In this document: positions 3,305 to 51,083 of the stretch, in pieces
Numbering within the stretch: position 1 is the first letter of the stretch
Layout: every line of letters begins with the position of its first letter
Assembly: GCA_963700155.1 (NCBI GenBank)
Contig: OY969472.1
Location: forward strand, 2,058 to 66,057
Direction of reading: 5' to 3'
DNA from: an uncultured bacterium
Lineage (GTDB): Bacteria > Patescibacteriota > Dojkabacteria > J137
Length of the DNA stretch: 64,000 nt
The notes under the pieces: generated by a model
What the model saw: the letters and a program-made list of their open reading frames with translations, nothing else
The model's database searches: none
What the model was told of the DNA's origin: nothing
Made by a program: the position numbers and the translations under genes

Positions 3305-3661
3305 ATGATGGAAAATAAAGAAAATAACCAAAATGAATCGAAAGAAGTTACCATACAATCATTAGATCAAAGATTATCAAATATTGAGGAGATGACACAA
3401 AAATTAGTTTTAATCGATAAATATTATCAGTTACAGACAGCATGGGAGAAAAGTGCAATGCGGACAATTTTGATTGCAATTACAACTTATATTTTATCGG
3501 CAATTTTTCTTTATATATTAAATTTTCAATACTTTTATATTAACGCAGTACTCCCTACTGTTGGATTTATGTTAACCACTTTATCAATTCCTTTCATAAA
3601 AAGAATTTGGATAAAATATTATCTGAAAGAAAAGGATTCAATTAAAGAAGTTCTTAGTTAA
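3305..3661 (+). CDS. hypothetical small membrane protein
   Basis: 118-aa ORF with a charged N-terminal part and two hydrophobic helices. Confidence 0.4.
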   Translation: MMENKENNQNESKEVTIQSLDQRLSNIEEMTQKLVLIDKYYQLQTAWEKSAMRTILIAITTYILSAIFLYILNFQYFYINAVLPTVGFMLTTLSIPFIKRIWIKYYLKEKDSIKEVLS

Positions 3662-3727
3662 TTAATATATTGCAGTTAATATATTTATGCGGTAATATTA
3701 TCTGAATATATTGAACAGTAAACGAAT

Positions 3728-4474
3728 ATGCTCGAAGTAAAAAATTTAACAAAACTATTTAAAAAAATAGATCAGAAAACAAAAGAGAAAAGTTATGTTG
3801 GTATAAGAGATGTATCTTTTAATGCAGATGAGGGTAGAATCTTCGGTTTAATAGGTGCAAACGGTGCTGGAAAAACCACAACAATGAGAATTATTGCAAA
3901 TCTAACTTATCCTCATTCAGGTGAAATTTTACTTGATGGTAAAAATTATAAAGATATTCATAATCTTAAAATGTTAGTAAGTTTTGTATCTGGTGAGACA
4001 CAAATATTTGATAGATTAACAGGTTACGAAATTTTAAGTCTTTTTGGAGAATTTGCTGGTATAACAGGGAAAGCTCTTGAAGATAAAATTCAATTTCTTG
4101 TAAAGAAACTTGATATGGGAGATTTTATTAATAACCTTTGCTCAGGTTATTCTTCAGGAATGAGACAAAAGGTATCTATTGCAAGAGCTTTAATAACTGA
4201 CCCAAAAGTTCTTGTTTTTGATGAAGTGACAAACGGATTAGATATCTTTGCGGCAAAAGCAGTTAAAGATGAAATAAAGAATATGAAGGCTGAAGGGAAA
4301 ATAATCTTATATAGTACTCATATTATGTCAGATGCTGAAGAATTATGCGATGATATTGGAATTCTTCATAAAGGCAAGATACTTGAAACAGGAAGTGTAA
4401 AAGATCTTAAGAAAAAGTATAAAGTTGATACTATTGAAGATATATTTTTTAATCTTGTAGAAGAACAAATATAA
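3728..4474 (+). CDS. ABC transporter ATP-binding protein
   Basis: Walker A motif GANGAGKTT, ABC signature YSSGMRQKVSIARAL, and Walker B motif VLVFDE. Confidence 0.85.
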   Translation: MLEVKNLTKLFKKIDQKTKEKSYVGIRDVSFNADEGRIFGLIGANGAGKTTTMRIIANLTYPHSGEILLDGKNYKDIHNLKMLVSFVSGETQIFDRLTGYEILSLFGEFAGITGKALEDKIQFLVKKLDMGDFINNLCSGYSSGMRQKVSIARALITDPKVLVFDEVTNGLDIFAAKAVKDEIKNMKAEGKIILYSTHIMSDAEELCDDIGILHKGKILETGSVKDLKKKYKVDTIEDIFFNLVEEQI

Positions 4475-5677: not shown

Positions 5678-6238
5678 TTAAGATTCAAAAGTATTACGAT
5701 AGGCAGTATCTCTTAAATTTTTGAAAAATGTCTCCACAACAACAAGAAAGTTAGTTCTATTTTTCAAATAATTTAAATATATGTTGTTGTGAGGCTGAAA
5801 TTTCAAACTAATACCTTTATAAGCCTTAGCAACAGCAACCTGTGCAGGGAAGACTTCAATATATTGATAATTTTCAATTCCATATTGAGCAATTAATGTT
5901 GAAACAAAATTGCAAATGACTTTAAATGTAAAAAATTTAAAAATTGGATAATCAATCATAAACAACTGGTTAGGTTGTTTCGAATCTATGTTTTCAATTA
6001 AAATTTCAAATGACTCAAAATCTATTTTTAGTTTAAATTGTACTTGTTCAAGTTTATATTTTGTTTTACTTTCACCAGTTAGATCTTTATAAGTGAAATT
6101 TAAAGTAACAGTATATTTTATAAAATTTTCACCTGTTTCAGTTTCAAAATTGAGTTTTTTAAGTTCAATACGATATCCTTCCAATACTAGTTGTACAGTA
6201 TTTTTACCTAAAACTTCATTTATATTATCTATATTCAT
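5678..6238 (-). CDS. hypothetical protein, last gene of the LigD-Pol/RarA same-strand cluster
   Basis: 186-aa ORF with no recognisable motif. It is tightly spaced downstream of rarA on the same strand. Confidence 0.4.
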   Translation of the reverse strand: MNIDNINEVLGKNTVQLVLEGYRIELKKLNFETETGENFIKYTVTLNFTYKDLTGESKTKYKLEQVQFKLKIDFESFEILIENIDSKQPNQLFMIDYPIFKFFTFKVICNFVSTLIAQYGIENYQYIEVFPAQVAVAKAYKGISLKFQPHNNIYLNYLKNRTNFLVVVETFFKNLRDTAYRNTFES

Positions 6239-6293
6239 TATATTTTTTTATAAAATTTTTCTGGATTATATTATTACTAGAAGAAATTATCTA

Positions 6294-7502
6294 CTATTTT
6301 AAATACTTTCTATCTTTAAGCTTATCTGGCATATGCTGTTGATCTACTTTTGCATCTTTAAAGTCATGTGCGTATTTGTAGCCTTTACCATAACCTAACT
6401 CTTTCATTAGCTTTGTGGGGGCATTTCTAATTACTAATGGAACTGGAAGAGAACCAAACTCATGAACATCAGACTGAGCAGATGATAAAGCTGAATAAGC
6501 TGAGTTGTCTTTTGGGGCTTTTGCGAGATAAATTGCTAATTGAACCAGAAATATATCACATTCAGGTCTTCCTAATTTTTGACATGCTTCAAAAGTAGAA
6601 TTTGCTATTACTAAAGCATTTGGATCTGCATTCCCAATATCTTCAGAAGCAAATCGCAAAAGCCTTCTTGCAATATAAAGTGGATCATCCCCAGCTTCAA
6701 GCATTCTTATTATCCAATAGACTCCTGCATCTGGATCTGAGTCTCTTAAAGATTTATGTACGGCTGAAATTATATTGTAATGATCTTCACCACGTTTTTC
6801 GTACTGCAAAAAGTTTTCAATTGATTTTTTTAAAATATCTTTAGTAATTATATTTTTATCAGAAATCATTAAAGCACTTTCAAGAATATTGCTGGCTGTT
6901 CTTAAATCTCCATCTGAAGATCTAACTATCACATCCAAGGCTTCATTATTGATTTTTATATTAAGACCTTCGGCTTTAACTTTTTCTATCAAGCGTTTTA
7001 GATAATCTTTAACATCTTCTTCAGAATGCTTATTCAAAGTAAAGACTCGAGTGCGCGACAACAGAGCCGGGATCAAAGAAAACGAAGGATTCTCTGTTGT
7101 CGCGCCAATTAAAGTTATAATACCTTTTTCAACATAGGGTAAAAGTGCATCTTGCTGGGATTTATTCCATCTATGTATCTCATCTAAAAACAAAATAGTT
7201 TTATTTGGAATTAATTCCATATTACCAGCTTGATTTTTAGTCATAGCATTCTTGATTATTGCTTTGAGATTATCTTTCCCAGCCATAACTGCAGAAAGTC
7301 TATAAAAATCTGCGTTTATTTCTTTTGAGATAATATGAGCAAGAGTAGTTTTCCCAGTTCCTGGGGGTCCCCAGAAAATCATGGAAGGAAGATTACCTGT
7401 TTCTATAAATCTTCTTATTGGTTTACCTTTGTCTACAAGGTGTTTCTGACCTATAAAGTCTTCTAATGTTGCAGGTCGGTATTTTGATGCTAATGGCTCC
7501 AT
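6294..7502 (-). CDS. rarA: replication-associated recombination protein A (RarA/MgsA AAA+ ATPase)
   Basis: N-terminal KYRPATLEDFIGQKHLV, Walker A motif GPPGTGKTTLA, Walker B motif LFLDEIHR, and a C-terminal MgsA helical domain. Confidence 0.9.
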   Translation of the reverse strand: MEPLASKYRPATLEDFIGQKHLVDKGKPIRRFIETGNLPSMIFWGPPGTGKTTLAHIISKEINADFYRLSAVMAGKDNLKAIIKNAMTKNQAGNMELIPNKTILFLDEIHRWNKSQQDALLPYVEKGIITLIGATTENPSFSLIPALLSRTRVFTLNKHSEEDVKDYLKRLIEKVKAEGLNIKINNEALDVIVRSSDGDLRTASNILESALMISDKNIITKDILKKSIENFLQYEKRGEDHYNIISAVHKSLRDSDPDAGVYWIIRMLEAGDDPLYIARRLLRFASEDIGNADPNALVIANSTFEACQKLGRPECDIFLVQLAIYLAKAPKDNSAYSALSSAQSDVHEFGSLPVPLVIRNAPTKLMKELGYGKGYKYAHDFKDAKVDQQHMPDKLKDRKYLK

Positions 7503-7538
7503 GTTTTGATTATATACTATGTATACCAGAAGAATATA

Positions 7539-8267
7539 TTATTGGAATGCGTTCAAACTTTTCACTGCCATATCCTCATCTTCATGCTCAAAAACTACAA
7601 CTCCACCTTTATCAGAAAATTCTTTTAATGCAAGTAGTAAAGGATAACACACACCATCAGGATCACCTAAATAAGTCCAGCAATCCTTAAATCTTTTATC
7701 CCATTGTGTCTTATCAGCAGTATGAATAACATCATATCCTGGTCTAAGTCTATTTGTTATAAACCATTCAATAAATTCTATTACTTCTTTTTGCTCTTTT
7801 TCATTCTTTGGATACATAATTCTACAATGATCAAAAATCATTGGAACACCCATAAATCTTGTAAAATTATAAACTTTCATTATTTCATCCCTATCAAACA
7901 CTTCAGTCTTTGCATTTTCAATTGCAACAAGACGACCATTAACGACTGGAACCATGGTAGGTATCATATCGTTTTCGTAGTGTACAAGAGGGATAATTAT
8001 TCTATCAGGTAATTCATTCTCAATCCTTTCAGCAATTTCTATCTCTTTTTGTGTAATAAAACCAAAGTTATGAAAATGAATAACTATTTCCTTAATCTCT
8101 GAATCCCTAATCATTTGAATCATTCTTCCAACATAAGCATCATCATTTTTAAACTCGTTAATAAAAAGCTGAACAGCCGTAAATCCATTCTTGGAAGCAA
8201 CTTCAACAGTGCTCCATAAATCATATCCATTTTTAATTAAAGCAGAAGAAGCTAATGCAGCAGGCAT
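7539..8267 (-). CDS. hypothetical TIM-barrel-like protein, possibly of the xylose-isomerase-like / AP-endonuclease-2 fold (tentative)
   Basis: 242-aa ORF with alternating beta/alpha hydrophobic periodicity and conserved acidic/His positions (VFEHEDED, IFDHC). It lies between LigD-Pol and rarA on the same strand. The fold assignment is inference. Confidence 0.3.
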   Translation of the reverse strand: MPAALASSALIKNGYDLWSTVEVASKNGFTAVQLFINEFKNDDAYVGRMIQMIRDSEIKEIVIHFHNFGFITQKEIEIAERIENELPDRIIIPLVHYENDMIPTMVPVVNGRLVAIENAKTEVFDRDEIMKVYNFTRFMGVPMIFDHCRIMYPKNEKEQKEVIEFIEWFITNRLRPGYDVIHTADKTQWDKRFKDCWTYLGDPDGVCYPLLLALKEFSDKGGVVVFEHEDEDMAVKSLNAFQ

Positions 8268-8307
8268 AAATTTATTTTAAAAAGTATCGATGGATTATAT
8301 CAGATTT

Positions 8308-9129
8308 TTAAAAATCCTTAATTGTGAACTCATTTGGCTTAACCTTCTCAACATCTTTCCAAGAAATTGGCATAGAAATAGAAGCTCCTTCACGAGCTCT
8401 TGTAGAATATGCAGCGATTGCAGTAGCACCACGTTCATTTCTAAGGTAATCAATAAACACTCGCCCTACTCTATCTTCCTTAGGTAGAGAAGTGGTGAAC
8501 TTTATTGGGGAATTTCCAGCTAATTCTTTTGCAATCTCAAAGCTTAAATCCTTAGATTCTTTCCATGTAGTCTTTTTATCCAATTCAGCAATAATATGGA
8601 AACCTTTTCCACCTGAAGTTTTTACTGAATTCTTTAAACCCATGTCGTCCAAAATATCTTTTAATTCATAGGAACCTTCGACAATATACTCATATTTAGA
8701 ACCTTCACCTGGATCCAAATCAAATATTATTCTGGTGGGATGTTCAAAATCAGCAGCTGTTGAGTTACCAACATGAAATTCAAGAACACCAAGATTTACC
8801 AGGTAAATGATATCTTCTATCTGATCGATCGTAATATAGTACCCTACTCCTTCTTTCTCTTTTATTTTTATCTTATCAATATAATCTGGAAAGTTTTCAG
8901 CTGGATGTTTTTGAAAAAATTTCTGTTTATCTATTCCTTCTGGTGCTCTGACTAGGCTCAATATTCTATCATCAAGCACTTCAAGAAATTTCTTCTCAAC
9001 TTTAAGATAGTAATTTATTATATCCAGTTTTGTAATTTTAGATTTTGGATAAAGGATTTTATTCGGATGTGTTACTTTAATTCCCCTAATTTCAATAGAT
9101 TCATTGTTGTCTTTTGTTTTATTTGCCAT
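8308..9129 (-). CDS. stand-alone LigD polymerase/primase domain (NHEJ primase-polymerase, Prim-PolC-like)
   Basis: KVTHPNKILYP, LVRAPEG, FDLDP, KTSGGKGFHI and RVFIDYLRNERGATAIAAYSTRAREGASISMPISW match the LigD Pol-domain motifs. Confidence 0.85.
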   Translation of the reverse strand: MANKTKDNNESIEIRGIKVTHPNKILYPKSKITKLDIINYYLKVEKKFLEVLDDRILSLVRAPEGIDKQKFFQKHPAENFPDYIDKIKIKEKEGVGYYITIDQIEDIIYLVNLGVLEFHVGNSTAADFEHPTRIIFDLDPGEGSKYEYIVEGSYELKDILDDMGLKNSVKTSGGKGFHIIAELDKKTTWKESKDLSFEIAKELAGNSPIKFTTSLPKEDRVGRVFIDYLRNERGATAIAAYSTRAREGASISMPISWKDVEKVKPNEFTIKDF

Positions 9130-9175
9130 AATAAAAATATATCATATTCAAAAACTTAATTCTTAAATAAATTAT

Positions 9176-9457
9176 ATGGATACACCACTTTTAGTTGGGA
9201 GTCTTGGAGGGCTAATTATTTTAATCTTGTTTTTATTAAATCAAGGTAATAAATTGAAGAATGATAATATTTATTATGATTTGTTCAATTTTATTGGAAG
9301 TCTATTATTAATTTTATATGCATTAATGATAAATAGTATTCCTTTTATTATTTTAAATATTGTTTGGGCAGGATATTCTTTAAAAGATGTAATTTCAAAA
9401 TTATTGAAACAAAAAAATATTAAATTAGTAGTGCGTGAAAATAACAATTCTGACTAA
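9176..9457 (+). CDS. hypothetical small membrane protein
   Basis: 93-aa ORF with three hydrophobic helices. Confidence 0.35.
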   Translation: MDTPLLVGSLGGLIILILFLLNQGNKLKNDNIYYDLFNFIGSLLLILYALMINSIPFIILNIVWAGYSLKDVISKLLKQKNIKLVVRENNNSD

Positions 9458-9464
9458 TAATAGT

Positions 9465-9887
9465 TTATTGTTCTATACTAATATCAGTCGGTTTACCATA
9501 ATTTATGTCATTTTGTCCTAAATTTTTGTATTTGCAAAAGATTCTGATATGTTCACTTGGATTGAGTCTTAATCTTTCTAGAAAAGAACTGTATCTAAGA
9601 GATTCTAATCCAGACAAAGAATAAACATGCAGAAGCGAGTCATCAAAAGCAATAAGTGCTAATTCTAAATTTTCTTGTGATTTTAGTTCCATCAAATCTT
9701 TAAGAAGTATCAATTTTAAGCTGTAAGTTTCAACTTCTTTAAACCCATGTAATTCTAAAAATTTCTTTATAGCTTTTCGATTATGAGAAATTCCATCAGG
9801 TATTATTACCGAATTATGAAGCGTATTTAAAGGAATTGGAGGAAAATCTTTAGGTCTTGAAAATAAATTTGTTAACAAATTCATCAC
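9465..9887 (-). CDS. hypothetical protein
   Basis: 140-aa ORF with no recognisable motif. Confidence 0.35.
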   Translation of the reverse strand: MMNLLTNLFSRPKDFPPIPLNTLHNSVIIPDGISHNRKAIKKFLELHGFKEVETYSLKLILLKDLMELKSQENLELALIAFDDSLLHVYSLSGLESLRYSSFLERLRLNPSEHIRIFCKYKNLGQNDINYGKPTDISIEQ

Positions 9888-9944
9888 TAATTGGAAACAA
9901 TTTATTTTTTATAATAACATAATTATTTTCCAAGAAAAAATTAT

Positions 9945-10889
9945 TTAAGGTTCAAGTTGAGATTCCCATCCTTGGTTAAGATTAGATTTTATTTTATCCA
10001 TTGCATCTAGAACTTCTCTCGAATAATTAGTATTTTCAATTTTATCTATTTTATATACCAAAGGTGTTCCTTCCTCATCATCTGCAAATTTTCTTTTAAA
10101 ATAATTAGTACTAACCTCAAGTAATGGTGAAGTTCCATGTTTTTCATTTGCCATGAATCTAAAATGATAAATTCCAAATTGATTAGCTTTTTTATAAAGT
10201 AATCTTGCAATTAGTTGTACTCTTGCTTTTTCATAATTATCAGAGTCAACTCTAGTTTCATCATTTTTTATACGTTCAATCACTTCTAAATGATGTACAT
10301 CTGGTATCCATATTTCTGCCTTATCTAGTCTTATTCCCAAAATCTCATGAAAAAATCTATCAACTTCAATCATTAACCCTAACATTTTCTTTAAATCTAC
10401 CACTTCTGGATTGTTTATATAATTTTCAAGTTGTTCATCTGGGATTTTCTTCAAGTCTTCATCTTCACTCAAAATATATGCAAGAGTTATTAAATTTGAT
10501 GAAGAGAATCGATCAAAAACTACTTGAACTACTCTGTGATTTATATTATATAGTATTTCTACAGCTCGCCTAATTTCATCTACACACTCAAGCCTATTTA
10601 AGGCAAAAAGCGAAAATCTTTCTTTCAATTCTAATTTATTACTTCTAAGCATTGTATGTATTTTTTCACCTAAAAATGTATTGTAATTAGGGAACTCAAC
10701 TCTTACCACATTAACTCCAGCGCCTATCATATACCTTTCTACATATGTAGCCCAGGTTCCTTTCCCAGAACCATCTAGTCCGTCCAGGATAGTATTCTGT
10801 ATAAGTTCCTCTTTTAAGAGTTCAAGATAGGTTTTTGAATTTGGTAGAAAAAGATCTAATTTTGTATCCATAAATTTTATAAAAATCAC
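9945..10889 (-). CDS. thymidylate-kinase-like P-loop (d)NMP kinase with an extended C-terminal region
   Basis: The P-loop ILDGLDGSGKGT matches the Tmk signature. The 314-aa protein is about 100 aa longer than canonical Tmk. The start may instead be the internal MDTKLD at 10871. Confidence 0.55.
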   Translation of the reverse strand: MIFIKFMDTKLDLFLPNSKTYLELLKEELIQNTILDGLDGSGKGTWATYVERYMIGAGVNVVRVEFPNYNTFLGEKIHTMLRSNKLELKERFSLFALNRLECVDEIRRAVEILYNINHRVVQVVFDRFSSSNLITLAYILSEDEDLKKIPDEQLENYINNPEVVDLKKMLGLMIEVDRFFHEILGIRLDKAEIWIPDVHHLEVIERIKNDETRVDSDNYEKARVQLIARLLYKKANQFGIYHFRFMANEKHGTSPLLEVSTNYFKRKFADDEEGTPLVYKIDKIENTNYSREVLDAMDKIKSNLNQGWESQLEP

Positions 10890-10934
10890 AAAATTATATC
10901 AGAAGTTTTGGTATACATAGCTTAAAATTTTTAT

Positions 10935-11327
10935 ATGAATAAATATTCAACACCAATCTTTGTTAGTTATATTAAAGCAGGGTTCCCATCTCCTGCAGAT
11001 GACTTTATTGAAAATACTCTAGATTTGGATGAATTTTTAATTGAACACCCTCAGGCCACTTTTTTTGTAAAAGTTTCGGGGGATTCAATGATAAACGCTG
11101 GAATTCATAGTAGAGATATTTTGATAGTAGATAGATCTTTGCAAGCTTACAACGGTAGTATCGTCGTTGCTGTAATTGATGGCGAATTTACTGTAAAAAG
11201 ATATAAAAAAATTGGGAATACTGTTTATTTACTTCCTGAAAATCCTAATTACAAAGTAATAAAAATCCCTGAAAATAGTGATTTCTTAATCTGGGGAGTG
11301 GTCAAACACGTAATACATTCAGTATAA
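10935..11327 (+). CDS. umuD: UmuD-like S24 self-cleaving peptidase (translesion-synthesis accessory protein)
   Basis: AGFPSPADDFIE, HPQATFFVKVSGDSMINAGI, DILIVD and GEFTVKRY are near-collinear with E. coli UmuD, including the Ala-Gly cleavage site, the catalytic Ser and the Lys. There is no N-terminal HTH domain. Confidence 0.85.
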   Translation: MNKYSTPIFVSYIKAGFPSPADDFIENTLDLDEFLIEHPQATFFVKVSGDSMINAGIHSRDILIVDRSLQAYNGSIVVAVIDGEFTVKRYKKIGNTVYLLPENPNYKVIKIPENSDFLIWGVVKHVIHSV

Positions 11328-11329
11328 AA

Positions 11330-11941
11330 TTACATTCTGAGCAAGTATCTTTTAAACCAATCCATTTTCCTTCTTATATCATCTGTATTATTTTCATTGA
11401 GAGCAATGCACGCTGACCAGAATAAAATCACATTAATATCACTAAGATGAATTAAGTCATCAGACTCCATAACTGGGAATTTATTATCCAAGATAGCATT
11501 TGTATTGAATACCTTATCAACCCTCTCTAGAATTCTTTCTGCCATTAAAATATCAAGATTATTAACCTCGTAAAAATCATCTAATGCGTATCCATTTATT
11601 TGAATTAAAAAGCTTACATATATTATTAACTGGGTAATAATATAATTAGTATTTAACTCAAAGAATCCAGTACTATTAAACTTTTTAGAAGTTAAAAACT
11701 TTCCAAGAAACACTGGACCTTTTTTGTTAAACATCAAAAATAACCATGATTCTTCATGCTGTTTTGCTTCTTTTTTATTTTTAATTGATATTAATTTTTT
11801 ATTATCTGAAAGATAAGAAAGCAACTTCAATAAGTTTTCATAGGAATTCCATACTTCCAAAGAAACAGGAGTCTTAAGATCATCAAATACTTCAAACTTT
11901 TCATCTAAATTGTTGTATTCTTCTAAATCCAAATTAAACAT
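11330..11941 (-). CDS. hypothetical protein
   Basis: 203-aa ORF with no recognisable motif. Confidence 0.4.
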   Translation of the reverse strand: MFNLDLEEYNNLDEKFEVFDDLKTPVSLEVWNSYENLLKLLSYLSDNKKLISIKNKKEAKQHEESWLFLMFNKKGPVFLGKFLTSKKFNSTGFFELNTNYIITQLIIYVSFLIQINGYALDDFYEVNNLDILMAERILERVDKVFNTNAILDNKFPVMESDDLIHLSDINVILFWSACIALNENNTDDIRRKMDWFKRYLLRM

Positions 11942-12354
11942 ATGTTAATTTTAAAAGTTTTTGATTATATCAATACAATATCTTTTTAGAAAATTTTCTT
12001 ACCATTTACTATAAGCAGGTATAGTAAAATAACAATTTTCATACTTTAAGAGAAAAGATTATTAATACCAATACCATAAATTCTATATTTTTCACTCTTT
12101 CTCTTTTTAAAGTTATGCATACTCTGGTGACTTTAAATTTCCACCTTGTTTTTCTAGTATTTTGTTATGTTAATATTATTGTAATTTTAATATACGTTAA
12201 AAAATCTCTATTACAGGCAATGAAAAGCGAGATCATGATTGCCAGAAAAAAATATATATTGTAACATCATATAATTAATATACTCTATATATAGTAATTT
12301 TTAGCTAAGTTTTACCAAACTAGCATATTCAATTATTTATTAATTTTTATTTAA

Positions 12355-14994: not shown

Positions 14995-15073
14995 AGGTAT
15001 ACATACGTTAAGATAATCTTGAAAGACTCTGAAATTAAAACTTTTTATTATTTTATTTTTTATTTTATAAAAT

Positions 15074-15237
15074 ATGAAAGGGTTATTAGAGCTTCAAGAA
15101 CAGCTAAGACGAAGGTCTTATGAACGAAGAATGTTCGTAGAACAAAATGAAGCATTAGACGAAGAGTTTAATAAGATAAAGAGTAGATTTACCAGAGGTA
15201 AGTATGATACAGTTATTGACCTTATTAAATGGTAGAT
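15074..15237 (+). CDS. possible small basic protein
   Basis: 53-codon ATG-to-TAG ORF (MKGLLELQEQLRRRSYERRMFVEQNEALDEEF...) in an otherwise empty 350-bp gap. It is below the length cutoff of the provided ORF track. Confidence 0.2.
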
Positions 15238-15347: not shown

Positions 15348-16100
15348 GTGGAAAAGAATCATATACTAATAAAAAATTTAATAATAAATTATTTATCAAA
15401 CAAAAGAGATTCCAATATTAATTTAATATTTATACATGGATGGAGGTCAGAAGCTAAAATCTGGGAAAGCATAATGCAGGAACTCAATATCTCATCTTAT
15501 GCAATTGATTTACCTGGATTTGGTGAATCACAAATGCCAACTAATAGCTATACTCTTAAAGATTTCTCAGAAATAATTAAAGAATTTATTAATAAATTAA
15601 ATCTTGAGAATGTAATATTAATAGGACATTCAAATGGCGGTGCAATATCTATAAAAACAATACTTAATTATCCTGAATTAATTTTAAAACTTATTCTTGT
15701 TGACAGTGCTGGTATCAGAGAACAAACTTTTTTTACCTTATTAAAGAATTTAATAGCAAAAATTGTAAAACCCTTATTTACACCAATGTTTATGAAGCCA
15801 TTAAGAGAAAAATTATATACTATAATGGGATCAGAAGATTACATTGCTGAACCAAAACTTAAACAGACTTTTATAAATATGATTAGTGAAGACTTAAGTC
15901 CAAGATTTAAGGAACTTAATAAACCTACATTAATAATCTGGGGTGAAAAAGATAAAGCAACTCCACTCTCTTATGCAAAATTTATGAATAATGAGATAAG
16001 AGGATCAAAACTAAAAATAATTCCAGAAGCTGAACATTATAGTTTTTTGCAGAATAAACAAATGTTTATTGACTACATTAAAGAATTTATCAATAATTAG
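15348..16100 (+). CDS. alpha/beta-fold hydrolase
   Basis: Nucleophile elbow GHSNGG, the HGW oxyanion region, and catalytic-triad spacing. Confidence 0.7.
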   Translation: MEKNHILIKNLIINYLSNKRDSNINLIFIHGWRSEAKIWESIMQELNISSYAIDLPGFGESQMPTNSYTLKDFSEIIKEFINKLNLENVILIGHSNGGAISIKTILNYPELILKLILVDSAGIREQTFFTLLKNLIAKIVKPLFTPMFMKPLREKLYTIMGSEDYIAEPKLKQTFINMISEDLSPRFKELNKPTLIIWGEKDKATPLSYAKFMNNEIRGSKLKIIPEAEHYSFLQNKQMFIDYIKEFINN

Positions 16101-16103
16101 GAT

Positions 16104-17586
16104 TATGAAATATACATTTCTTCCATATAATATTTTTAAATACCAGCTGTATATCTTCCAACTTGAAGAATATGAATCTTCAAGGTTTTTAAGATCATTA
16201 TTTAAGAAAGGACTGTTACCTACTCAAAACTTACGTAAAGAGCTTGTATGGACAACTAAAGCTAAAATTCTTGCAATCTTAACTTTCATAATTGAGATAT
16301 TGTTGAACATTTTAATCACGTACCTATTATATAGAGCTTTTAATTTAGAAATAATTGGAGTTGTTTTAATTTATCTCGTTTTATTCTATTTGCTAATAAT
16401 CCTGTCTTTTGCCTTTTTTATGCAATCTGTGGATTTAATTTCACCTCTGGAAAGATATCAAAAAAACAAAATTATTAAACAGGCAAAAGACAAGATTAAA
16501 AATTACACAAATTTGAAAATTATAGGAATTACAGGTAGTTATGGGAAAACTACAATGAAAGAGACTCTTTTCACAATTTTAAATGAGAAATTTAGAGTAG
16601 TAAAAACATCAGGAAATAATAATACTCCACTTGGTATTTCAAGAACAATTTTGGATAAATTAACAGAGATAACACAAATATTTATAGTTGAGATGGGAGA
16701 ATATGTAAAAGGAGATGTTAAAGAACTCTGTGAAATAACCCCTCCAGATATTTCAATAATTACAGGAATTAATGAAGCTCACCTTGAAAGATATAAAACA
16801 ATGGAGAACGCAATAAGTACTAAATTTGAAATTGTTGAAAATGCTAAACCGAATGCAGGATTTATTTTAAATGCTGATGATAAATTAACTTTAGAGAATT
16901 ATAAAAAGTATATTGATGATGAGAGTAAGATTACATTTTATTCAAGTTTGGATAATGTTCAAGACATAAATCTTGAGTTCAAAATAAAGAATATAATTTT
17001 TAATGAAGAAGAGCCTTCTTATGAATTTGAGTTATTTAATGGAGATTCTTCGCTTGGTATAACAAGAACAAAAATCCTAGCACCATATATTTTTGGTAAT
17101 ATTACCGCTTCAGCAACTATAGCAAAACATTTAGGGATGAATGATACCGAGATAAGACTTGGTATTAGCAATTTAAAACCAGTTGAACATAGACTTGAAA
17201 GTAGAATTATTCAAAATAATATTTTAGTAATAGATGATACTTATAATGGAAATTCAGATGGAATAAAAATCGGACTTGATTTATTAAACAAATTTAAAAA
17301 GAGAAGGAAAGTTTATGTTACACCAGGACTTGTAGAGACTGGTAGTTTATCTAAAGAAATTCATATTCAAATAGGTAAAGAATTGGCAAATGTAGCCGAT
17401 CTAGTTATTTTACTGAAAGATAGTGTTACTCCATACATTTTTCAGGGTCTTAAAGAAGCGGGATATGATGAGAAAAAAGTTATATGGTATGATTATTCTA
17501 AGGAAATGTATGCAAATCTGCATGAACATTTGAAACAGAATGATGTAGTAATGATGCAGAATGACTGGAGTGATAATTATTCTTAG
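16104..17586 (+). CDS. murF: Mur ligase family protein (MurF-like), carrying an unusual N-terminal membrane-anchor region
   Basis: Central-domain P-loop IIGITGSYGKTTMKET, plus the Mur ligase middle and C-terminal domains. The first ~110 aa contain 2-3 hydrophobic helices instead of the canonical MurF N-domain. The track start at 16069 overlaps the upstream gene, and ATG 16104 is preferred. Confidence 0.65.
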
Positions 17587-17596
17587 TATATAAAAT

Positions 17597-18064
17597 ATGA
17601 TTGTTCGAGAACTACTATCTCAAGATATAGAACATATCATTAATCCTGCACAACAGATGTATTTGGATCATGATTTAAAGGAGCAAGAGCTTTTTACACC
17701 AAATTCTTTTGAACCCGAAAGAATTAAAGAATATTTTCTTAATACTTTAAATAATAAATTTCAAAAAACTTTTGTCGCAGAAGAAAATGGTGAAGTTTTA
17801 GGATTTATTAGATGTGAAATAAAAGAAACTCCAAGATTTTATAAAGAAAGAAAAGTTGGATTCACAGATGATTTGGTTGTAATTAAAAAATATCAAAGAA
17901 CTGGAGTAGGGACAAAATTAAAAAAGAAAGCTGAAGAATGGTTTAAAAAAAAAGATATTAAGCTTTTAGAATGTAAGATCTATGAATGGAACATACCTTC
18001 TGCTAAACTATCAGAGAAATTAGGTTACAAAAAGACCTTTTCATATTATTATAAGCATATTTAA
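17597..18064 (+). CDS. GNAT family N-acetyltransferase
   Basis: Acetyl-CoA binding motif QRTGVGTKL. The 155-aa length fits. Confidence 0.7.
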   Translation: MIVRELLSQDIEHIINPAQQMYLDHDLKEQELFTPNSFEPERIKEYFLNTLNNKFQKTFVAEENGEVLGFIRCEIKETPRFYKERKVGFTDDLVVIKKYQRTGVGTKLKKKAEEWFKKKDIKLLECKIYEWNIPSAKLSEKLGYKKTFSYYYKHI

Positions 18065-18079
18065 TATTATAATTACTTT

Positions 18080-19252
18080 ATGACAATAGGAGTATTTTTC
18101 GGTTCAAGAAGTCCTGAGCATGATGTTTCAATAATTACCGGACAATTAGTCATCCAGGGATTAAAAGAACTTGGACATGATGTTGTACCTGTTTATATTT
18201 CTAAAGATGGACAATGGTGTGTTGGAGATGAGCTTGGTAATATAGAATTTTTTAAACAAAAAGATTTTGAAAGTAAGCTAAAAAAACTAGTCGGATACGC
18301 ATTACTACCAGATCCAGCCAGTCAAAAATTAATATTAAGAAAAACAGGTGTTATTTCAAATAAAGAATATAAGCTTGATTTAGCTTTTCCTGCACTTCAT
18401 GGACAATATGGTGAAGATGGAACTATACAAGGTCTTTTTGAAATGATGAATGTACCCTATGTAGGTTGTGATGTTACAACTTCATCAATAACAATGGACA
18501 AAGTTTTAACTAAAATTGTTTACCAGAGATTTAATATTCCAACTACAAACTTTATATATTTTGAAAATAAGGAATGGGTTAACAATAAAGAAGATATTAT
18601 TAATGATATCAAATCAAATTTAACTTGGCCTGTAATCGTTAAGCCAACAAAACTTGGTTCATCAATTGGGATTGCAAAAGCAAAAACTGATCAAGAGTTA
18701 GAATTAGCAATCGAAGTTGCATTACATTATGATCAAAAGGTAATCGTCGAAGAATGTATTGAAGAACTAATGGATTTAACTGTTGCAGTTATAGGTAACG
18801 AAGAACCAATTGCTTCACTTATACAAGAATCAGTTTATTCAAAAGAATTTTTCTCTTATGAGGATAAGTACTTAGAACAAGGTGGAGCTCAACTTGGAAA
18901 TGCTGAAAAGAAAATTATTATTCCAGCAACTTTAGACGATGAAACTACTAAGGAGATAAAACAAATGGCAATAGATATTTATAAAATTTTCAACTGTTCA
19001 GGAACGGCGCGGGTTGATTTCTTGTACAGCAAAACTTACAAAAAATTCTATGCTAATGAAATCAACCCACTCCCAGGAACTTTATACCATCACTTATGGA
19101 AAAAAAGTGGAATAGAATTAAAAGATCTATTAACTAAACTTATAGAATATGCAAATGAAAGACAAGATAAAAAAAATAAAGTAACATATACTTTTGATTC
19201 AGATATTCTTAAGCAATCTAATAAAGATAAGATGAAATTAAAAGGCGCATAG
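18080..19252 (+). CDS. ddl: D-alanine--D-alanine ligase
   Basis: N-terminal GVFFGSRSPEHDVSIITG and ATP-grasp motifs. Adjacent to murF. Confidence 0.9.
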   Translation: MTIGVFFGSRSPEHDVSIITGQLVIQGLKELGHDVVPVYISKDGQWCVGDELGNIEFFKQKDFESKLKKLVGYALLPDPASQKLILRKTGVISNKEYKLDLAFPALHGQYGEDGTIQGLFEMMNVPYVGCDVTTSSITMDKVLTKIVYQRFNIPTTNFIYFENKEWVNNKEDIINDIKSNLTWPVIVKPTKLGSSIGIAKAKTDQELELAIEVALHYDQKVIVEECIEELMDLTVAVIGNEEPIASLIQESVYSKEFFSYEDKYLEQGGAQLGNAEKKIIIPATLDDETTKEIKQMAIDIYKIFNCSGTARVDFLYSKTYKKFYANEINPLPGTLYHHLWKKSGIELKDLLTKLIEYANERQDKKNKVTYTFDSDILKQSNKDKMKLKGA

Positions 19253-19253: not shown

Positions 19254-19877
19254 TTATTTTCGTGATATAAAATTATTTCCTTTAATATAGAACCGTAATG
19301 GCTTATCAATTGCTTTCTTTATGCCTATTCGCTTTGTTGAAACAATATCATTCTCATTCACTTCATAACCATCTTCAGCAATGTAAAGTTTAGAATCCCA
19401 AAGTTTTAATCCATCGTGACTTTTATTTATTCCTAAAGCTAAACATAGTTTACCTGGTCCATTGCAAATCTTATTATCTTTTATTTCTTTATCCTTTATG
19501 TTTTTTCTTCTTAAATTAAACCTACTTATATTAGCTTTCATCTTTTCTATTCCTATAAGAGGCTCTGAGGCACGAATTAACACTGCTTCACCAATTTTAT
19601 TTTCATTTGAAGAAATGTTAAAACAGTAATAATTTCCATAAATAAAATAAACATAAGAAGTTCCAGGTTCTTCAAAGACTGATTTGTTTCTTTTAGTTTT
19701 ACCAATAAAAGAATGCGCTGCCGGATCATTTGAAAGATAAGCTTCTGTCTCTACAATTCTACCAGACAATAAACTACCATTTACTTCATTAACTATAATC
19801 TTACCTAGTAAATCTTTTGAAAGTTCTAATGTATCTTTTTTAAAATAAAAATTTTTATTAAGTTTTTTAAATTTCAT
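19254..19877 (-). CDS. mpg: DNA-3-methyladenine glycosylase (Mpg/AAG family)
   Basis: GRIVETEAY...DPAAHSF...GTSYVYFIYGNYYCFN matches the AAG/Mpg family signature. Confidence 0.85.
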   Translation of the reverse strand: MKFKKLNKNFYFKKDTLELSKDLLGKIIVNEVNGSLLSGRIVETEAYLSNDPAAHSFIGKTKRNKSVFEEPGTSYVYFIYGNYYCFNISSNENKIGEAVLIRASEPLIGIEKMKANISRFNLRRKNIKDKEIKDNKICNGPGKLCLALGINKSHDGLKLWDSKLYIAEDGYEVNENDIVSTKRIGIKKAIDKPLRFYIKGNNFISRK

Positions 19878-20318
19878 TTATCGACTACTTTGTTATATAT
19901 GTGATACTATTTCAGTTATTTTGATCAAACTATATTAACATTTTATTTTGACATTTTATTAAATTCAACTGAAGTATAGGTCCCATAAATCACTAATAGT
20001 AAAGGAATTACTGAATATCTTTTACAATTCGAAGATAAGATATAAAAGGATTGAACTTTCCAGTTAAACTTGACTTAATTTCATAATTTTCTAATCGAAT
20101 TATTTATGGATATCCACGATAGATAGAAAAAACTTCATATGAAATTGCATTATTTTAAAAAATAATGCGTTACGGTATTGATACAATCTCTATTTATAAT
20201 TCAAAAATGTATACTAAAACTAAATTTTCTTATAGAAAACAGTTTTATACTTATTGTCACCAAAAATAAATATCAAATATAATTGAAGAAGAAAACTTTA
20301 GAATGTTTTTTGTATGTT

Positions 20319-20347
20319 ATTTATCTGTTAAAATCATACAGATAAAT
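20319..20347. promoter_or_regulatory. perfect 10-bp inverted repeat with a 9-nt spacer (ATTTATCTGT-N9-ACAGATAAAT), candidate operator
   Basis: It lies 16-44 nt upstream of the radA start codon. The core CTGT-N9-ACAG resembles a LexA-type SOS box, which is CTGT-N8-ACAG in E. coli. Confidence 0.4.
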
Positions 20348-20362
20348 TAATAAAATTTCAAT

Positions 20363-21667
20363 ATGTTTATTTGTTCTAATTGTGGAAAAATTTTTACAAA
20401 ATGGCAAGGACAATGTGATAGTTGCGGGAAATGGAATACAATAATTGAAAACCCAAATATAGTAGAAAAAGGTAAATCTAATAGGAAAAAAAATACCTCA
20501 AACGCAAAACCTGTAAAACTCAAAGATATTGATAATAAAAATACAGCAAACCGAAAAGGTTATCTTAAAACTGGAATTAATGAATTCGATAATACAATAG
20601 GAGGCTCATTAGTTCCAGGTCAGGTGATTCTTCTTGCAGGCTCACCAGGTGTTGGTAAAAGTACTTTAGCCTTACAAATTACTCAAGCATTATCAAACCA
20701 AAATGTAAATATTTTATATGTTGCTGGTGAAGAATCACCCGAACAAATTAAACAAAGAGCAGATAGACTTGGTTTAAACTTAAATAACGTTTATTTTTTA
20801 CCTGAGAGTAATATAAGAAGTGTTGAAAACTACGTTTCTTCACATAGAGATAAAATTGATATTGTATTTATAGATTCAATACAAACAATGTATGAACCCT
20901 CATCAAATTCAAGTTCTGGTTCAGTTTCTCAAGTCTCTGAATCTACAAATACGATCACAAATTTTGCAAAAGGTTTCGGAATAACGACTTTTATTATTGG
21001 TCATATTACGAAATCAGGAGATATCGCAGGACCTATGATATTAGAACATATGGTCGATACAGTACTGTTTTTTGAAGGTGAAAGAAGGTTTGAGTTTAGG
21101 ATTTTAAGAGTTGAAAAAAACAGATTTGGTCCAACAGATGAAGCTGGAATATTTAGAATGACTCAAAAAGGACTTGAGGAGGTCAAAGATACTAAGGAAT
21201 TATTAAAAATTAATAAGGAACAGTCCAGTGGCTCTGCTTATAGTATTGTACTTGAAGGAAGTCGTCCTGTAGTGGTTGAGATTCAAGCTTTAGCAACAAA
21301 AACTTATTTTACAAATCCACGAAGGACGACTTCCGGTTTTGATACAAATAGACTTTATATTCTTCTTGCAATTATCGATAAAAAATTAAAGCTTAAAACT
21401 TGGGAATATGACGTTTATGTAAACATAACCGGAGGTTTAAAAGTTTCAGACCCTGCTGTCGATTTAGCAGTTATTCAAGCAATAATTTCATCAATAAAAG
21501 ATACAATTATACCAAAAGATAATATTTACTTTGGAGAGGTAGGACTCACTGGTGAAGTTAGGAAAGTATTCTTAGAGGATAAACGAGTAAAAGAAGCTAA
21601 AAGACTTGGATTTGAAAACTTATTTTCTTCTAAAACTATAAAAAATATTCAATCATTAAAGTTTTAA
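20363..21667 (+). CDS. radA: DNA repair protein RadA/Sms
   Basis: N-terminal C4 zinc finger (CSNCG...CDSCGKW), Walker A motif GSPGVGKSTL, KNRFG motif, and a C-terminal Lon-like domain. Confidence 0.9.
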   Translation: MFICSNCGKIFTKWQGQCDSCGKWNTIIENPNIVEKGKSNRKKNTSNAKPVKLKDIDNKNTANRKGYLKTGINEFDNTIGGSLVPGQVILLAGSPGVGKSTLALQITQALSNQNVNILYVAGEESPEQIKQRADRLGLNLNNVYFLPESNIRSVENYVSSHRDKIDIVFIDSIQTMYEPSSNSSSGSVSQVSESTNTITNFAKGFGITTFIIGHITKSGDIAGPMILEHMVDTVLFFEGERRFEFRILRVEKNRFGPTDEAGIFRMTQKGLEEVKDTKELLKINKEQSSGSAYSIVLEGSRPVVVEIQALATKTYFTNPRRTTSGFDTNRLYILLAIIDKKLKLKTWEYDVYVNITGGLKVSDPAVDLAVIQAIISSIKDTIIPKDNIYFGEVGLTGEVRKVFLEDKRVKEAKRLGFENLFSSKTIKNIQSLKF

Positions 21668-24024: not shown

Positions 24025-24099
24025 ACAATATTAACTGAATATTATTTCACTTATAGTCTACAATATCTAGTGGATTTAGAGAAGAATTTAAAGCATTTC

Positions 24100-24999: not shown

Positions 25000-25004
25000 A
25001 AATT

Positions 25005-27263: not shown

Positions 27264-27278
27264 AATATTAATAAATAT

Positions 27279-28217: not shown

Positions 28218-28291
28218 AAATATTATTTAATAGTTATTAACATCAATATATCTCTAAATATAACACAAAGTTCTTACAAAACATTTACATC

Positions 28292-28789: not shown

Positions 28790-28816
28790 ATTTTTTTATA
28801 AATAATTAAAATATTA

Positions 28817-30625: not shown

Positions 30626-30741
30626 AAATCATATTTTATAAACAATTTTTTGATTATATAACGAGAAATATGAAATTGGTATGAAAAACTATCTCTTTAT
30701 TGAAAATATAAGTACTATAAATTATAATAATCATGCTCTAA

Positions 30742-51056: not shown

Positions 51057-51083
51057 TAATTTATTATTTAATTTATTTTTTCT

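Follow-up and report, generated by a model that had tools for sequence, protein, structure and literature searches.

The three DNA-damage genes in the interval at positions 5678-11327 of the window (the whole 64-kb stretch of DNA that was analyzed) probably owe their closeness to a gene order inherited in the lineage rather than to membership in a dedicated repair operon. They encode a stand-alone LigD-type polymerase domain (PolDom), RarA, and UmuD. Two features appear to be particular to this genome: umuC was lost together with a DUF1232 gene, and a TIM barrel gene occupies a variable slot between the genes for PolDom and RarA. The genome is small (about 1.14 Mb) with 28% G+C. The interval is ordinary chromosome, and no defence or phage signal was found in it using PADLOC and PHROGs.

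Gene organization

A minus-strand run consists of PolDom (8308-9129, 273 aa), a stand-alone LigD-type primase–polymerase domain; the TIM barrel (7539-8267, 242 aa); the AAA+ recombination/replication-restart ATPase RarA/MgsA (6294-7502, 402 aa); and an orphan ORF of 186 aa (5678-6238). The ORFs were found again where the preliminary description had placed them, with measured gaps of 40, 36, and 55 nt, and all of its domain calls were borne out by profile searches. Four-gene co-directional runs with short gaps are not unusual in the window, in which longer runs occupy 50658-58735 and 21670-32397. The gene of a CBU_0592-family small membrane protein (9176-9457, plus strand, 93 aa; NF047864, E = 1e-7), absent from that description, is divergent from PolDom and lies between it and a 140-aa orphan ORF (9465-9887, minus strand). 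Beyond these are a Tmk-like P-loop protein (9945-10889, minus strand), which probably begins with the ATG at 10871 (308 aa, as in the gene call in L001), and a UmuD-like S24 peptidase (10935-11327, plus strand, 130 aa). A 203-aa ORF (11330-11941, minus strand), likewise omitted earlier, adjoins umuD on its downstream side.

The 186-aa ORF showed no match in Pfam, NCBIfam, or PADLOC and no tblastn match in the related loci; its PHROGs match was marginal (phrog_35881, E = 0.0045). The 140-aa ORF matched no family in Pfam, NCBIfam, PADLOC, or PHROGs and is absent from the relatives; in L012 the corresponding place is taken by a GATase gene on the opposite strand. The dTMP kinase likeness of the Tmk-like protein is confined to its N-terminal half: residues 35-133 alone align with PF02223, over profile positions 1-93 of 185 (E = 2e-10), and the TIGR00041 score (32 bits) is below the cut-off of 83. 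Its ortholog in L012 is 37% identical, and none was found in L014, L028, and L029.

The order umuC–umuD–CBU_0592<>PolDom–slot–rarA is conserved in five related contigs, and the extended order of the lineage is umuC–umuD–(Tmk-like)–CBU_0592<>PolDom–variable slot–rarA–ABC transporter–mscL. The ABC transporter, mscL, murE-like, and ddl genes are collinear with the window in the relatives. PolDom is 70% identical to its counterparts in L012/L013, 59% in L014, 52% in L028, and 51% in L029; the values for L012 and L014 are 81% and 78% for RarA and 70% and 63% for UmuD. The CBU_0592–PolDom pairing is kept in all related loci, and PF26604 adjoins PolDom in L012, L013, L014, L028, and L029, with a tblastn match in L015. 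Between L029 and the window, the CBU_0592<>PolDom–slot–rarA segment is inverted with respect to the murE/ddl block but is intact, and this linkage could reflect selection rather than inertia. The relatives are close (RarA is about 80% identical), so a shared gene order carries little weight in either direction.

Across the five related loci, four unrelated gene sets occupy the slot between PolDom and rarA: L012 has DUF1828/1829 and DUF6978 genes on the opposite strand, L014 a 309-aa gene with no relation to these, L028 a 1899-aa CHAP/PA14 protein with a 620-aa gene, and L029 a 347-aa homolog of the latter gene. The TIM barrel fills the slot in the window only, that is, at one of the six PolDom loci and one of the 17 TIM-family loci. 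At the 16 other loci, where the neighbors are diverse, no gene for PolDom, RarA, UmuD, or Mpg was found, either beside the family member or elsewhere in the locus. The position of the barrel beside PolDom would represent accessory-gene placement, not a conserved partnership, although a newly captured neighbor can be functionally recruited.

Features of PolDom

PolDom matched PF21686 (E = 8e-79) and TIGR02778 ligD_pol (279.7 bits, cut-off 214.7). The catalytic residues Asp137, Asp139, and Asp227, the SGxKGxH motif, and Lys24 and Lys34 of the 5′-phosphate pocket, defined as in PMC7442782, are all present. Judged from these residues, the polymerase is catalytically intact and has kept the pocket, which serves gap recognition (PMC7442782). 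Its most likely role is to fill short gaps or extend termini beside a 5′-phosphate, and the family suggests a preference for rNTPs. The preliminary description took mycobacterial Prim-PolC as the model, an analogy that alignment with 2fao, 5dmu, 5op0/6sa0, and 2iru did not support. PolDom residues 12-270 align with the Prim-PolC core, but the protein stops at the end of the core domain and has no C-terminal extension, whereas the α8/Loop 3 extension is strictly conserved in Prim-PolC (PMC5663958), which needs Loop 3 for gaps >1 nt (PMC7442782). NHEJ-type PolDoms were also the better matches (2fao, 4e-50; 5dmu, 7e-48; Prim-PolC, 2e-39).

These top matches, Pseudomonas aeruginosa LigD POL and the stand-alone NHEJ Pol of Methanocella, raise the question of whether PolDom is the separately encoded POL of a split LigD, with Ku and an ATP-dependent ligase (LigD-LIG/LigC type) elsewhere in the genome. 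Split LigD systems are known (PMC5663958; PMC7719229, "nonconventional NHEJ"), and POL–PE and POL–LIG fusions occur among PolDom relatives at ≤47% identity. We regard this reading as rather unlikely. Consistent with the preliminary description, a domain scan of ORFs of at least 100 aa over the 64-kb window, lenient threshold included, found no Ku, ATP-dependent ligase, or IMS/UmuC domains. ku and ligD usually lie near each other, and no Ku or ligase was found at the six related loci within about 10 kb on each side of PolDom (less at contig ends). All relatives with at least about 47% identity are stand-alone proteins of 262-307 aa, and NHEJ correlates with genomes of large size (PMC7719229), in contrast to the roughly 1.1 Mb here. 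Because the genome is small, a PolDom that works without Ku is somewhat more likely than one that works with Ku and ligase encoded elsewhere.

Family and metal ligands of the TIM barrel

The AlphaFold2 model of the barrel (pLDDT 96.7) has eight β/α units, and the profile matches are in the AP_endonuc_2 superfamily, as expected from the TIM-barrel assignment made earlier. The protein is a member of a rare, as yet unnamed family within the AP-endonuclease-2/xylose-isomerase superfamily, with about 50 cluster representatives among 1.84 billion proteins. It had no match in Pfam or NCBIfam, and PF01261 was matched by 20 of the 40 family members. Gln33, His64, His96, Glu117, Asn118, Asp146, Arg149, Gly222, and Glu227 are invariant, and His182 is retained in 39 of the 40. 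Six of the nine metal ligands of Endonuclease IV (Endo IV) are retained, including both Zn1-site histidines, along with the E-N motif; an invariant Arg takes the place of the third-site His. His64, His96, and Glu117 would build one metal site, and Glu117, Asp146, His182, and Glu227 the other, with Arg149 standing in for the third-metal ligand His182 of Endo IV. Of the claim that the barrel may be an Endo IV- or UvdE-type nuclease, the idea of a nuclease-like protein rather than a typical sugar isomerase is supported; the defining third metal site of Endo IV and UvdE is missing. On alignment, the ligands follow the pattern that a DNA-repair nuclease would be expected to show, and nuclease activity is plausible. 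The barrel is most likely a putative two-metal phosphodiesterase of the Endo IV branch.

A role unrelated to DNA, as a sugar or sugar-phosphate isomerase, epimerase, dehydratase, or CbiR-like phosphodiesterase, appears doubtful, although such small-molecule enzymes dominate the superfamily. Foldseek and hhalign did not separate the barrel from sugar epimerases/isomerases: ketose 3-epimerases gave the top Foldseek E-values, and Escherichia coli Hyi (0.0027) scored above Nfo (0.18) in hhalign; the family did not match the Nfo models. Two members weakly matched CbiR, a precedent for non-DNA phosphodiesterases in the superfamily (PMC7733943). The proteins are short (228-250 aa), with little space for the DNA-recognition loops of Endo IV, and the gene neighbors of the family include NUDIX hydrolases (twice) and one ITPase-like gene. 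Against this, the Hyi alignment leaves the ligands out of register, and the invariant β4 His (His96), both Zn1-site histidines, and the E-N motif are absent from E. coli Hyi and UlaE. In the whole-PDB profile search, Endo IV-type proteins alone reached E < 10, led by the archaeal MJ1311 (7e-5), which PMC2770678 lists among predicted homologs of Endo IV, and by the M. tuberculosis enzyme itself (Endo IV, 0.006). The conserved basic residues (Arg149, Lys186, and position 194, which is Arg in 34 of 40 members and Lys in this protein) suggest a phosphate-bearing substrate.

Transcription and the putative SOS operator

Each short gap of the minus-strand run has its own −10-like element (TGATATAAT, TATATAAT, TAATATAAT), and separate promoters are possible from these sequences. 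The gaps of the run showed no terminator-like hairpin. Because PolDom and the TIM barrel gene are separated by just 40 nt that contain no terminator, their co-transcription in this genome is possible. On balance, the four minus-strand genes do not seem to form one dedicated BER operon.

The site GGTATACA occurs at 7520-7527 (minus strand) in the 36-nt gap between the TIM barrel gene and rarA, 6 nt upstream of a TATAAT hexamer, and at 10910-10917 (plus strand) in the divergent Tmk-like/umuD promoter region. It is also present upstream of rarA in L014, L028, and L029 (one-mismatch variant in L012), upstream of umuD and umuC in L012, and upstream of umuC in L028 and, with one mismatch, L014. About 128 kb (five non-redundant sequences) contain 11 exact GGTAYACA sites, eight of which are on the coding strand, no more than 60 nt ahead of the start codon of rarA, umuD, or umuC; the remaining two promoters of these genes carry one-mismatch variants. 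lexA in L007 is preceded by TTGACA and then, within 28 nt, three GTATAC hexamers; the 64-kb window showed no LexA. From roughly a dozen sites and a single lexA promoter, which lies on a contig (L007) of uncertain relatedness, we infer that GGTAYACA is probably the LexA operator of the lineage. rarA and umuD would each have their own promoter overlapped by this site, as would umuC in the relatives. If so, rarA and umuD would provide SOS-controlled damage tolerance (fork rescue and translesion synthesis).

The earlier suggestion of a minimal Ku-independent module for BER or short-gap repair, in which a glycosylase would remove the base, the barrel cut or clean the AP site, PolDom fill, and a housekeeping ligase seal, is improbable: despite the co-directional PolDom–barrel pair, the kept ligands and 5′-phosphate pocket, the Endo IV-type best matches, and the mycobacterial precedent of Endo IV working best with Prim-PolC/LigC (PMC5663958), the adjacency is unique to this genome, Loop 3 and the third metal site are missing, the barrel is not set apart from sugar enzymes, no ATP-ligase is nearby, and mpg is in a different transcription unit. 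This 3-methyladenine (Mpg/AAG-type) DNA glycosylase gene, confirmed at 19254-19877 (minus strand; PF02245, E = 8e-62), is about 8 kb from the cluster and outside the gene run, and its upstream sequence lacks the operator-like motif.

RarA, UmuD, and the loss of umuC

RarA contains MgsA_C (E = 8e-60), AAA_assoc_2, and AAA domains, with Walker A from residue 45 and Walker B from residue 104. The description of the S24 peptidase as fully UmuD-like is upheld by NF007621 (164 bits, cut-off 110) and phrog_811 UmuD-like (2e-48); the Ala15-Gly16 cleavage site and the Ser51/Lys88 dyad are intact, and there is no HTH domain. A different polymerase partner had been proposed from the lack of an adjacent umuC. 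The maps of L012/L013, L014, and L028 show umuC (IMS and DUF4113) and a DUF1232 gene at the position of the intergenic stretch 11942-12354, and umuC lies near umuD in L012, L014, and L028. No umuC or DUF1232 remnant was found in this stretch; tblastn on the 1.1-kb stretch alone gave nothing better than E = 0.3, and tblastn with UmuC of three relatives gave no match in the 64-kb window. The stretch is followed by an SdrD_B protein in synteny with L013, and of the 203-aa ORF only the last 32 residues resemble the 170-aa gene between umuD and umuC of L012 (blastp E = 5e-5). The umuC beside umuD has been lost here, and no new partner is indicated.

Comparison with known systems

PolDom shares the AEP primase–polymerase core, the three catalytic aspartates, SGxKGxH, and the 5′-phosphate-pocket lysines with the NHEJ LigD POLs of P. 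aeruginosa (2FAO), Methanocella paludicola (stand-alone, 5DMU), and M. tuberculosis (2IRU). Unlike these, it has no fused or neighboring ligase, phosphoesterase, or Ku, and in this lineage it sits between the CBU_0592 membrane gene and rarA, near umuDC. Mycobacterial Prim-PolC (5OP0, 6SA0) is likewise a stand-alone PolDom paralog with a 5′-phosphate pocket, but PolDom lacks C-terminal α8 and Loop 3 (Prim-PolC residues 294-336) and is outside any LigC operon.

The TIM barrel resembles Endo IV (Nfo) and MJ1311 (3WQO) in having ligands at the C-terminal ends of β3 to β8. The pairs with Nfo are His64=His69, His96=His109, Glu117=Glu145, Asp146=Asp179, His182=His216, and Glu227=Glu261, and the E-N, H-x-x-D, and LGxG motifs are common to both. 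It differs from Endo IV in being about 40 residues shorter and in lacking the third metal site: invariant Arg149 is at the position of Endo IV His182, the family has no His at the His231 position, and the Asp229 position is variable. RarA has the full domain set of RarA/MgsA with both Walker motifs; unlike in known RarA/MgsA, its promoter carries the operator-like site of umuD/umuC, and the SOS control is putative. The UmuD-like protein has the S24 fold, the Ala-Gly cleavage site, and the Ser/Lys dyad of E. coli UmuD (UmuD′2C, Pol V) and passes the curated subfamily cut-off, but it has a shorter N-terminal arm, in which 15 residues precede the cleavage site. In contrast to the E. coli Pol V locus, the 64 kb here contain no umuC, which in the relatives is one to three genes away from umuD.

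Gene organization of the window

ORF mapping and profile scans bore out the genes that the preliminary description had placed at 5678–11327, and its domain calls were correct. The minus strand carries a stand-alone LigD-type primase-polymerase domain (PolDom; 273 aa, 8308–9129), a 242-aa protein without a Pfam or NCBIfam match (7539–8267), RarA/MgsA with MgsA_C, AAA, and AAA_assoc_2 domains (6294–7502), and a 186-aa orphan ORF without a credible family match (5678–6238). These four genes are separated by 40, 36, and 55 nt; longer co-directional runs are present in the window, where four closely spaced genes in one direction are nothing unusual. On the other side of PolDom lie a 140-aa orphan ORF with no family match (9465–9887, minus strand), a gene for a Tmk-like protein (9945–10889, minus strand), and a UmuD-like gene (10935–11327, plus strand). 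A 93-aa membrane gene of the CBU_0592 family (9176–9457, plus strand), overlooked earlier, is divergent from PolDom. The dTMP kinase likeness of the Tmk-like protein is limited to its N-terminal P-loop half: the PF02223 profile was matched at positions 1–93 of 185, and TIGR00041 gave 32 bits, short of a full-length match above the equivalog cut-off of 83. The G+C content of the window is 28%, and the parent contig is 1.14 Mb long.

No Ku, ATP-ligase, or Y-family polymerase domain was detected by profile scan in any window ORF of at least 100 aa, with unannotated ORFs rescanned at E ≤ 0.1, and tblastn with the UmuC proteins of three relatives gave no match in the window. The earlier statement that Ku, ligase, and UmuC are missing holds for the 64-kb window. 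PADLOC returned nothing credible as a defence island and PHROGs nothing beyond UmuD and Tmk as a prophage, and on these results such an origin of the orphan genes was rejected. The 140-aa ORF was also considered as a decayed form of the GATase found at that place in the related locus L012, and this was rejected (opposite strand, zero similarity).

As previously stated, mpg is located at 19254–19877 (minus strand). It adjoins radA/sms (plus strand) in a divergent pair 485 nt apart (19254–21667), which makes another small cluster of repair genes. Farther on, a 266-aa protein (33623–34423, plus strand) resembles HhH-GPD glycosylases at a level below threshold (E = 4e-4), and the end of its gene overlaps that of a 110-aa P-loop protein with weak Tmk/dNK kinase likeness (34420–34752, plus strand); these may represent one more glycosylase gene and one more small kinase-like gene. 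A giant ORF of 3636 aa with Ig-like (Big_13) repeats occupies 39689–50599 (plus strand), where the local G+C fraction is 0.34–0.36 versus ~0.28 elsewhere. Similar giant surface proteins adjoin PolDom in the related loci L015 (3897 aa) and L028 (1899 aa).

Comparison with related loci

Unrelated accessory genes collect between PolDom and rarA: across five genomes, this hot-spot interval holds four distinct gene sets. In L012/L013 (PolDom identity, 70%), the order is DUF1232, umuC, a 170-aa ORF, umuD, Tmk-like, GATase, CBU_0592, PolDom, an interval with DUF1828/1829 and DUF6978 genes on the other strand, rarA, ABC transporter, and mscL. In L014 (59%), it is umuC, a 55-aa ORF, umuD, CBU_0592, PolDom, a 309-aa ORF in the interval, and rarA. 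L028 (52%) has umuC, two small ORFs, umuD, CBU_0592, a 198-aa ORF, PolDom, genes for a 1899-aa CHAP/PA14 protein and a 620-aa protein in the interval, and rarA. L029 (51%) has CBU_0592, PolDom, a 347-aa ORF in the interval, and rarA, followed by hydrolase, murE-like, and ddl genes as in the window at 15348–19252. The intervals compared were 7503–8307 in the window, 5899–7189 in L012, 8814–9826 in L014, 10889–18784 in L028, and 2136–3306 in L029. Only the 620-aa protein of L028 and the 347-aa protein of L029 are homologous, and among these loci the 242-aa protein (hereafter the barrel) is found in the window only. No counterparts of the 186-aa and 140-aa ORFs were found in the related loci. Because the interval holds four unrelated gene sets, the barrel takes that place only in the window, and both orphan ORFs lack counterparts, the neighborhood reads as a gene order passed down in the lineage and interrupted at a variable insertion point, rather than as a conserved operon.

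The surroundings of the barrel family point the same way. PolDom, RarA, UmuD, and Mpg were absent, by tblastn, from the contexts of five family members and eleven further metagenomic loci, and the family has no recurrent partner: NUDIX genes occur twice, and nth (L025), dprA/topA (L019), an EVE-domain gene (L003), and a GIY-YIG gene (L024) once each. Co-occurrence of the family with repair genes was rejected, as these are single cases. Neighbors of distant members (L025 6001–6669 and 7353–8006, L019 1–453 and 1206–1583, L011 4701–5941, L026 358–963, and L003 3620–4087) include endonuclease III-like, dprA, topA, NUDIX, and EVE genes, with nucleic-acid or nucleotide themes, none of them recurrent. 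PolDom and the barrel do not form a module. The gene run had been tentatively read as a minimal base-excision or gap-repair operon, which would have been notable; the comparative evidence does not support it.

The divergent CBU_0592–PolDom pair, separated by 9130–9175 in the window, is kept in every related locus (L012, L013, L014, L015, L028, and L029), down to 48% PolDom identity, and is conserved deeper than PolDom–rarA.

Orphaned umuD

The UmuD-like protein exceeds the NF007621 cut-off (164 bits versus 110) and has the A15–G16 cleavage site and the S51/K88 dyad, so the description of the gene as fully UmuD-like stands. In L012, L014, and L028, a 415–421-aa IMS/DUF4113 UmuC is encoded one to three genes from umuD. 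Downstream of umuD in the window are a 203-aa ORF, 413 nt of noncoding DNA, and a gene for an SdrD_B protein, whose counterpart in L013 sits beyond umuC and DUF1232. No umuC or DUF1232 remnant was detected, even in a search limited to this 1.1-kb stretch, and a degraded umuC pseudogene at 11942–12354 was rejected on that result. Measured against their L012 orthologs, UmuD (70% identity), PolDom (70%), and the ABC permease (71%) have diverged to about the same degree. It had been suggested that UmuD has another polymerase partner; the comparative evidence does not support this, with umuC near umuD in three relatives and missing from the window. The simplest reading is that umuC was lost or relocated in this genome, rather than that UmuD serves another polymerase in the lineage. 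The window offers a natural example of umuD remaining intact without the umuC that once adjoined it.

Candidate SOS operator

Read-through and internal promoters both appear possible in the four-gene run because each short gap has its own −10-like element and no terminator-like hairpin was found between the genes. The sequence GGTATACA lies 5–8 nt upstream of a −10 hexamer both in the 36-nt gap before rarA (7520–7527, minus strand) and in the divergent Tmk-like/umuD region (10910–10917, plus strand). This 8-nt site, generalized as GGTAYACA, is found in the same geometry before rarA in L014, L028, and L029, with a one-mismatch variant in L012; L012 also carries it before umuD and umuC, and umuC is preceded by it in L028 and by a one-mismatch form in L014. 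The occurrence before rarA, umuD, and umuC spans five related genomes. There are 11 exact sites in ~128 kb, 8 of which lie in rarA, umuD, or umuC promoters; sites in the relatives are at 2189–2196 and 3148–3155 in L012, 9779–9786 in L014, 7522–7529 and 18725–18732 in L028, and 3264–3271 in L029. A third GGTATACA site in the window (14996–15003, plus strand) precedes an unannotated 53-aa ORF (15074–15235, plus strand; MKGLLELQEQLRRRSYERRMFVEQNEALDEEFNKIKSRFTRGKYDTVIDLIKW), which may encode a small damage-induced protein. The site is absent upstream of PolDom, the barrel gene, mpg, and radA, except for TGTATACA at PolDom in L029. A GTATAC upstream of radA (20209) was rejected as an operator site; its flanks and geometry differ.

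On L007, the contig of the closest barrel homolog, the promoter region of lexA (3623–4258, minus strand) contains TTGACA and, packed into 28 nt, three GTATAC hexamers (4259–4320: TTGACA-AGAAT-GGTATACC-AC-GTATACC-ATTAA-GTATAC). This arrangement would fit autoregulation via the same GTATAC core motif. GGTAYACA is probably the operator of a repressor, perhaps LexA. From these promoter comparisons, we infer that the LexA box of the lineage is built around GTATAC and that rarA and umuDC belong to the SOS genes. Such an operator would place rarA with umuDC in the SOS regulon of poorly studied small-genome bacteria.

PolDom

PolDom scored far above the curated cut-off of PF21686 (E = 8e-79; 265 bits versus 27.4) and above that of TIGR02778 (279.7 versus 214.7). 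The catalytic acidic triad (D137, D139, and D227) and the SGGKGFH motif are present, and K24 and K34 align with K23 and K35 of the 5′-phosphate pocket defined in Prim-PolC (PMC7442782). The C-terminal α8/Loop 3 extension, which is strictly conserved in and defines Prim-PolC and is required for gaps of >1 nt (PMC5663958, PMC7442782), is absent from PolDom, whose 273 aa reach no farther than the core (its alignment with 6sa0 breaks off at chain position ~274 of 350). Its closest solved structures are the NHEJ polymerases Pseudomonas aeruginosa LigD POL (4e-50) and Methanocella Pol (7e-48), followed by Prim-PolC (2e-39). A Prim-PolC-type operon with LigC was not found either, as no ligase domain occurs in the window or the related loci. 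On these three counts, the Prim-PolC analogy drawn earlier is not supported.

The pathway of PolDom depends on genes outside the window. Relatives down to ~47% identity are all stand-alone proteins of 262–307 aa, and only below that level are PE- or ligase-fused proteins seen. No Ku or ATP-ligase was found within ~10 kb on either side of PolDom (less at contig ends) in six related loci; neither there nor in the window is the polymerase accompanied by, or joined to, the Ku and ATP-dependent ligase of a Ku–LigD NHEJ system. Split NHEJ, in which PolDom acts with Ku and a ligase encoded elsewhere in the genome, agrees with the structural matches to NHEJ polymerases and is a less likely but serious rival. 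A Ku-independent role is somewhat favored because NHEJ correlates with large genomes (PMC7719229) and the host genome is 1.1 Mb. A lone PolDom kept across relatives with no nearby Ku or ligase is a possible Ku-independent repair polymerase.

Fold and metal sites of the barrel family

A word-indexed homolog search with the 242-aa protein matched only itself, and a profile search with the family alignment (A1) gave few matches. Metagenome scans gave no match with alignment A2 and 12 loci, mostly short, with alignment A3. An exhaustive HMMER search of 1.84 billion proteins yielded ~50 cluster representatives; the family is therefore rare. The TIM-barrel call was borne out by an AlphaFold2 model from the family alignment, an eight-stranded β/α barrel (pLDDT 96.7, pTM 0.93) with the invariant residues at the C-terminal ends of strands β2 to β8. 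Among 40 aligned full-length members, Q33, H64, H96, E117, N118, D146, R149, G222, and E227 are invariant, and D179, H182, and E229 nearly so. Residues 64–67 are H-F-H-N in the window protein and H-L-P-N in 36 of the 40 members (Pro at +2), a lineage-specific change beside a metal ligand.

The (β/α)8 fold and an E-D-H-E metal quartet on β5 to β8 place the family in the PF01261 clan, and half of the members (20/40) weakly match PF01261 itself (AP_endonuc_2/xylose-isomerase-like barrel; best E = 2.4e-6). Against all PDB sequences, the profile matched two proteins only: MJ1311 (3wqo, E = 7e-5), a predicted Endo IV homolog of Methanocaldococcus jannaschii (PMC2770678), and Mycobacterium tuberculosis endonuclease IV (5zhz, E = 0.006). 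Foldseek gave weak matches only, the top ones all in the AP endonuclease 2/xylose-isomerase superfamily; the best E-values were for ketose 3-epimerases (~1e-6) and the best TM-score for Thermus thermophilus Endo IV (0.60). Curated Nfo models in NCBIfam matched neither the window protein nor any of the 40 members. The UvdE models (PF03851/TIGR00629) did not match the window protein and weakly matched 2/40 members in one scan (best, 0.0049) and 1/40 in another (0.036).

Metal ligands were mapped by HMMER alignments and hhalign against authentic Escherichia coli Nfo, and conservation was counted in the 40 members. H64, H96, E117–N118, D146, and E227 correspond to Endo IV H69, H109, E145–N146, D179, and E261 and are kept in all members; H182 (Endo IV H216) is kept in 39. 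At the third site, Endo IV H182 is replaced by R149 (Arg in 40/40), the H231 position (W197) is never His, and the D229 position (D195) is D or E in 25/40. Six of the nine ligands of the trinuclear cluster (H69, H109, E145, D179, H182, H216, D229, H231, and E261) are therefore kept, and the mapping indicates that metal sites 1 and 2 are complete in the family and the third is gone.

Possible combined role

Left standing are the rare Endo IV-like two-metal barrel family, the candidate rarA–umuDC SOS operator, the orphaned umuD, and the lone PolDom, a modest but usable outcome. Joining them into one scheme is a long shot. Here the reduced, AT-rich genomes of the lineage would lack NHEJ, and PolDom would be a Ku-independent, PrimPol-like damage-tolerance polymerase, linked with SOS-controlled rarA and umuDC, that fills or re-primes gaps at stalled forks. 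The barrel, a novel Arg-assisted, two-metal Endo IV-like phosphodiesterase, would have joined PolDom in the window genome and would clean gap termini, and UmuD would persist without UmuC by an acquired UmuC-independent role.

Comparison with enzymes of the barrel superfamily

Membership in the sugar isomerase/epimerase branch is slightly favored by the Foldseek E-values and by hhalign, which against single E. coli sequences gave 0.0027 for Hyi, 0.016 for UlaE, and 0.18 for Nfo, a comparison that does not discriminate; yet the family has an invariant β4 His and the E-N pair. In the sugar enzymes Hyi and UlaE, the β4 His is absent, and E-x-x-N or E-x-x-D is found in place of E-N. This motif pattern would place the family on the nuclease/phosphodiesterase side of the superfamily, as neither Nfo nor UvdE. 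Of the earlier proposal of an Endonuclease-IV- or UvdE-type nuclease, the nuclease-like ligand motifs remain, and the third metal site and a match of the window protein to Nfo or UvdE models do not. Among its members, the superfamily also counts CbiR, a phosphodiesterase that does not act on DNA (PMC7733943), and the family showed weak matches to it in the profile scan. Metal-dependent phosphodiesterase chemistry is most likely, and a putative DNA-repair nuclease is plausible. Rare and compact, with two metal sites and an invariant Arg at the position of the third zinc of Endo IV, the family is a clean biochemical target that bears on the evolution of the trinuclear nuclease site.
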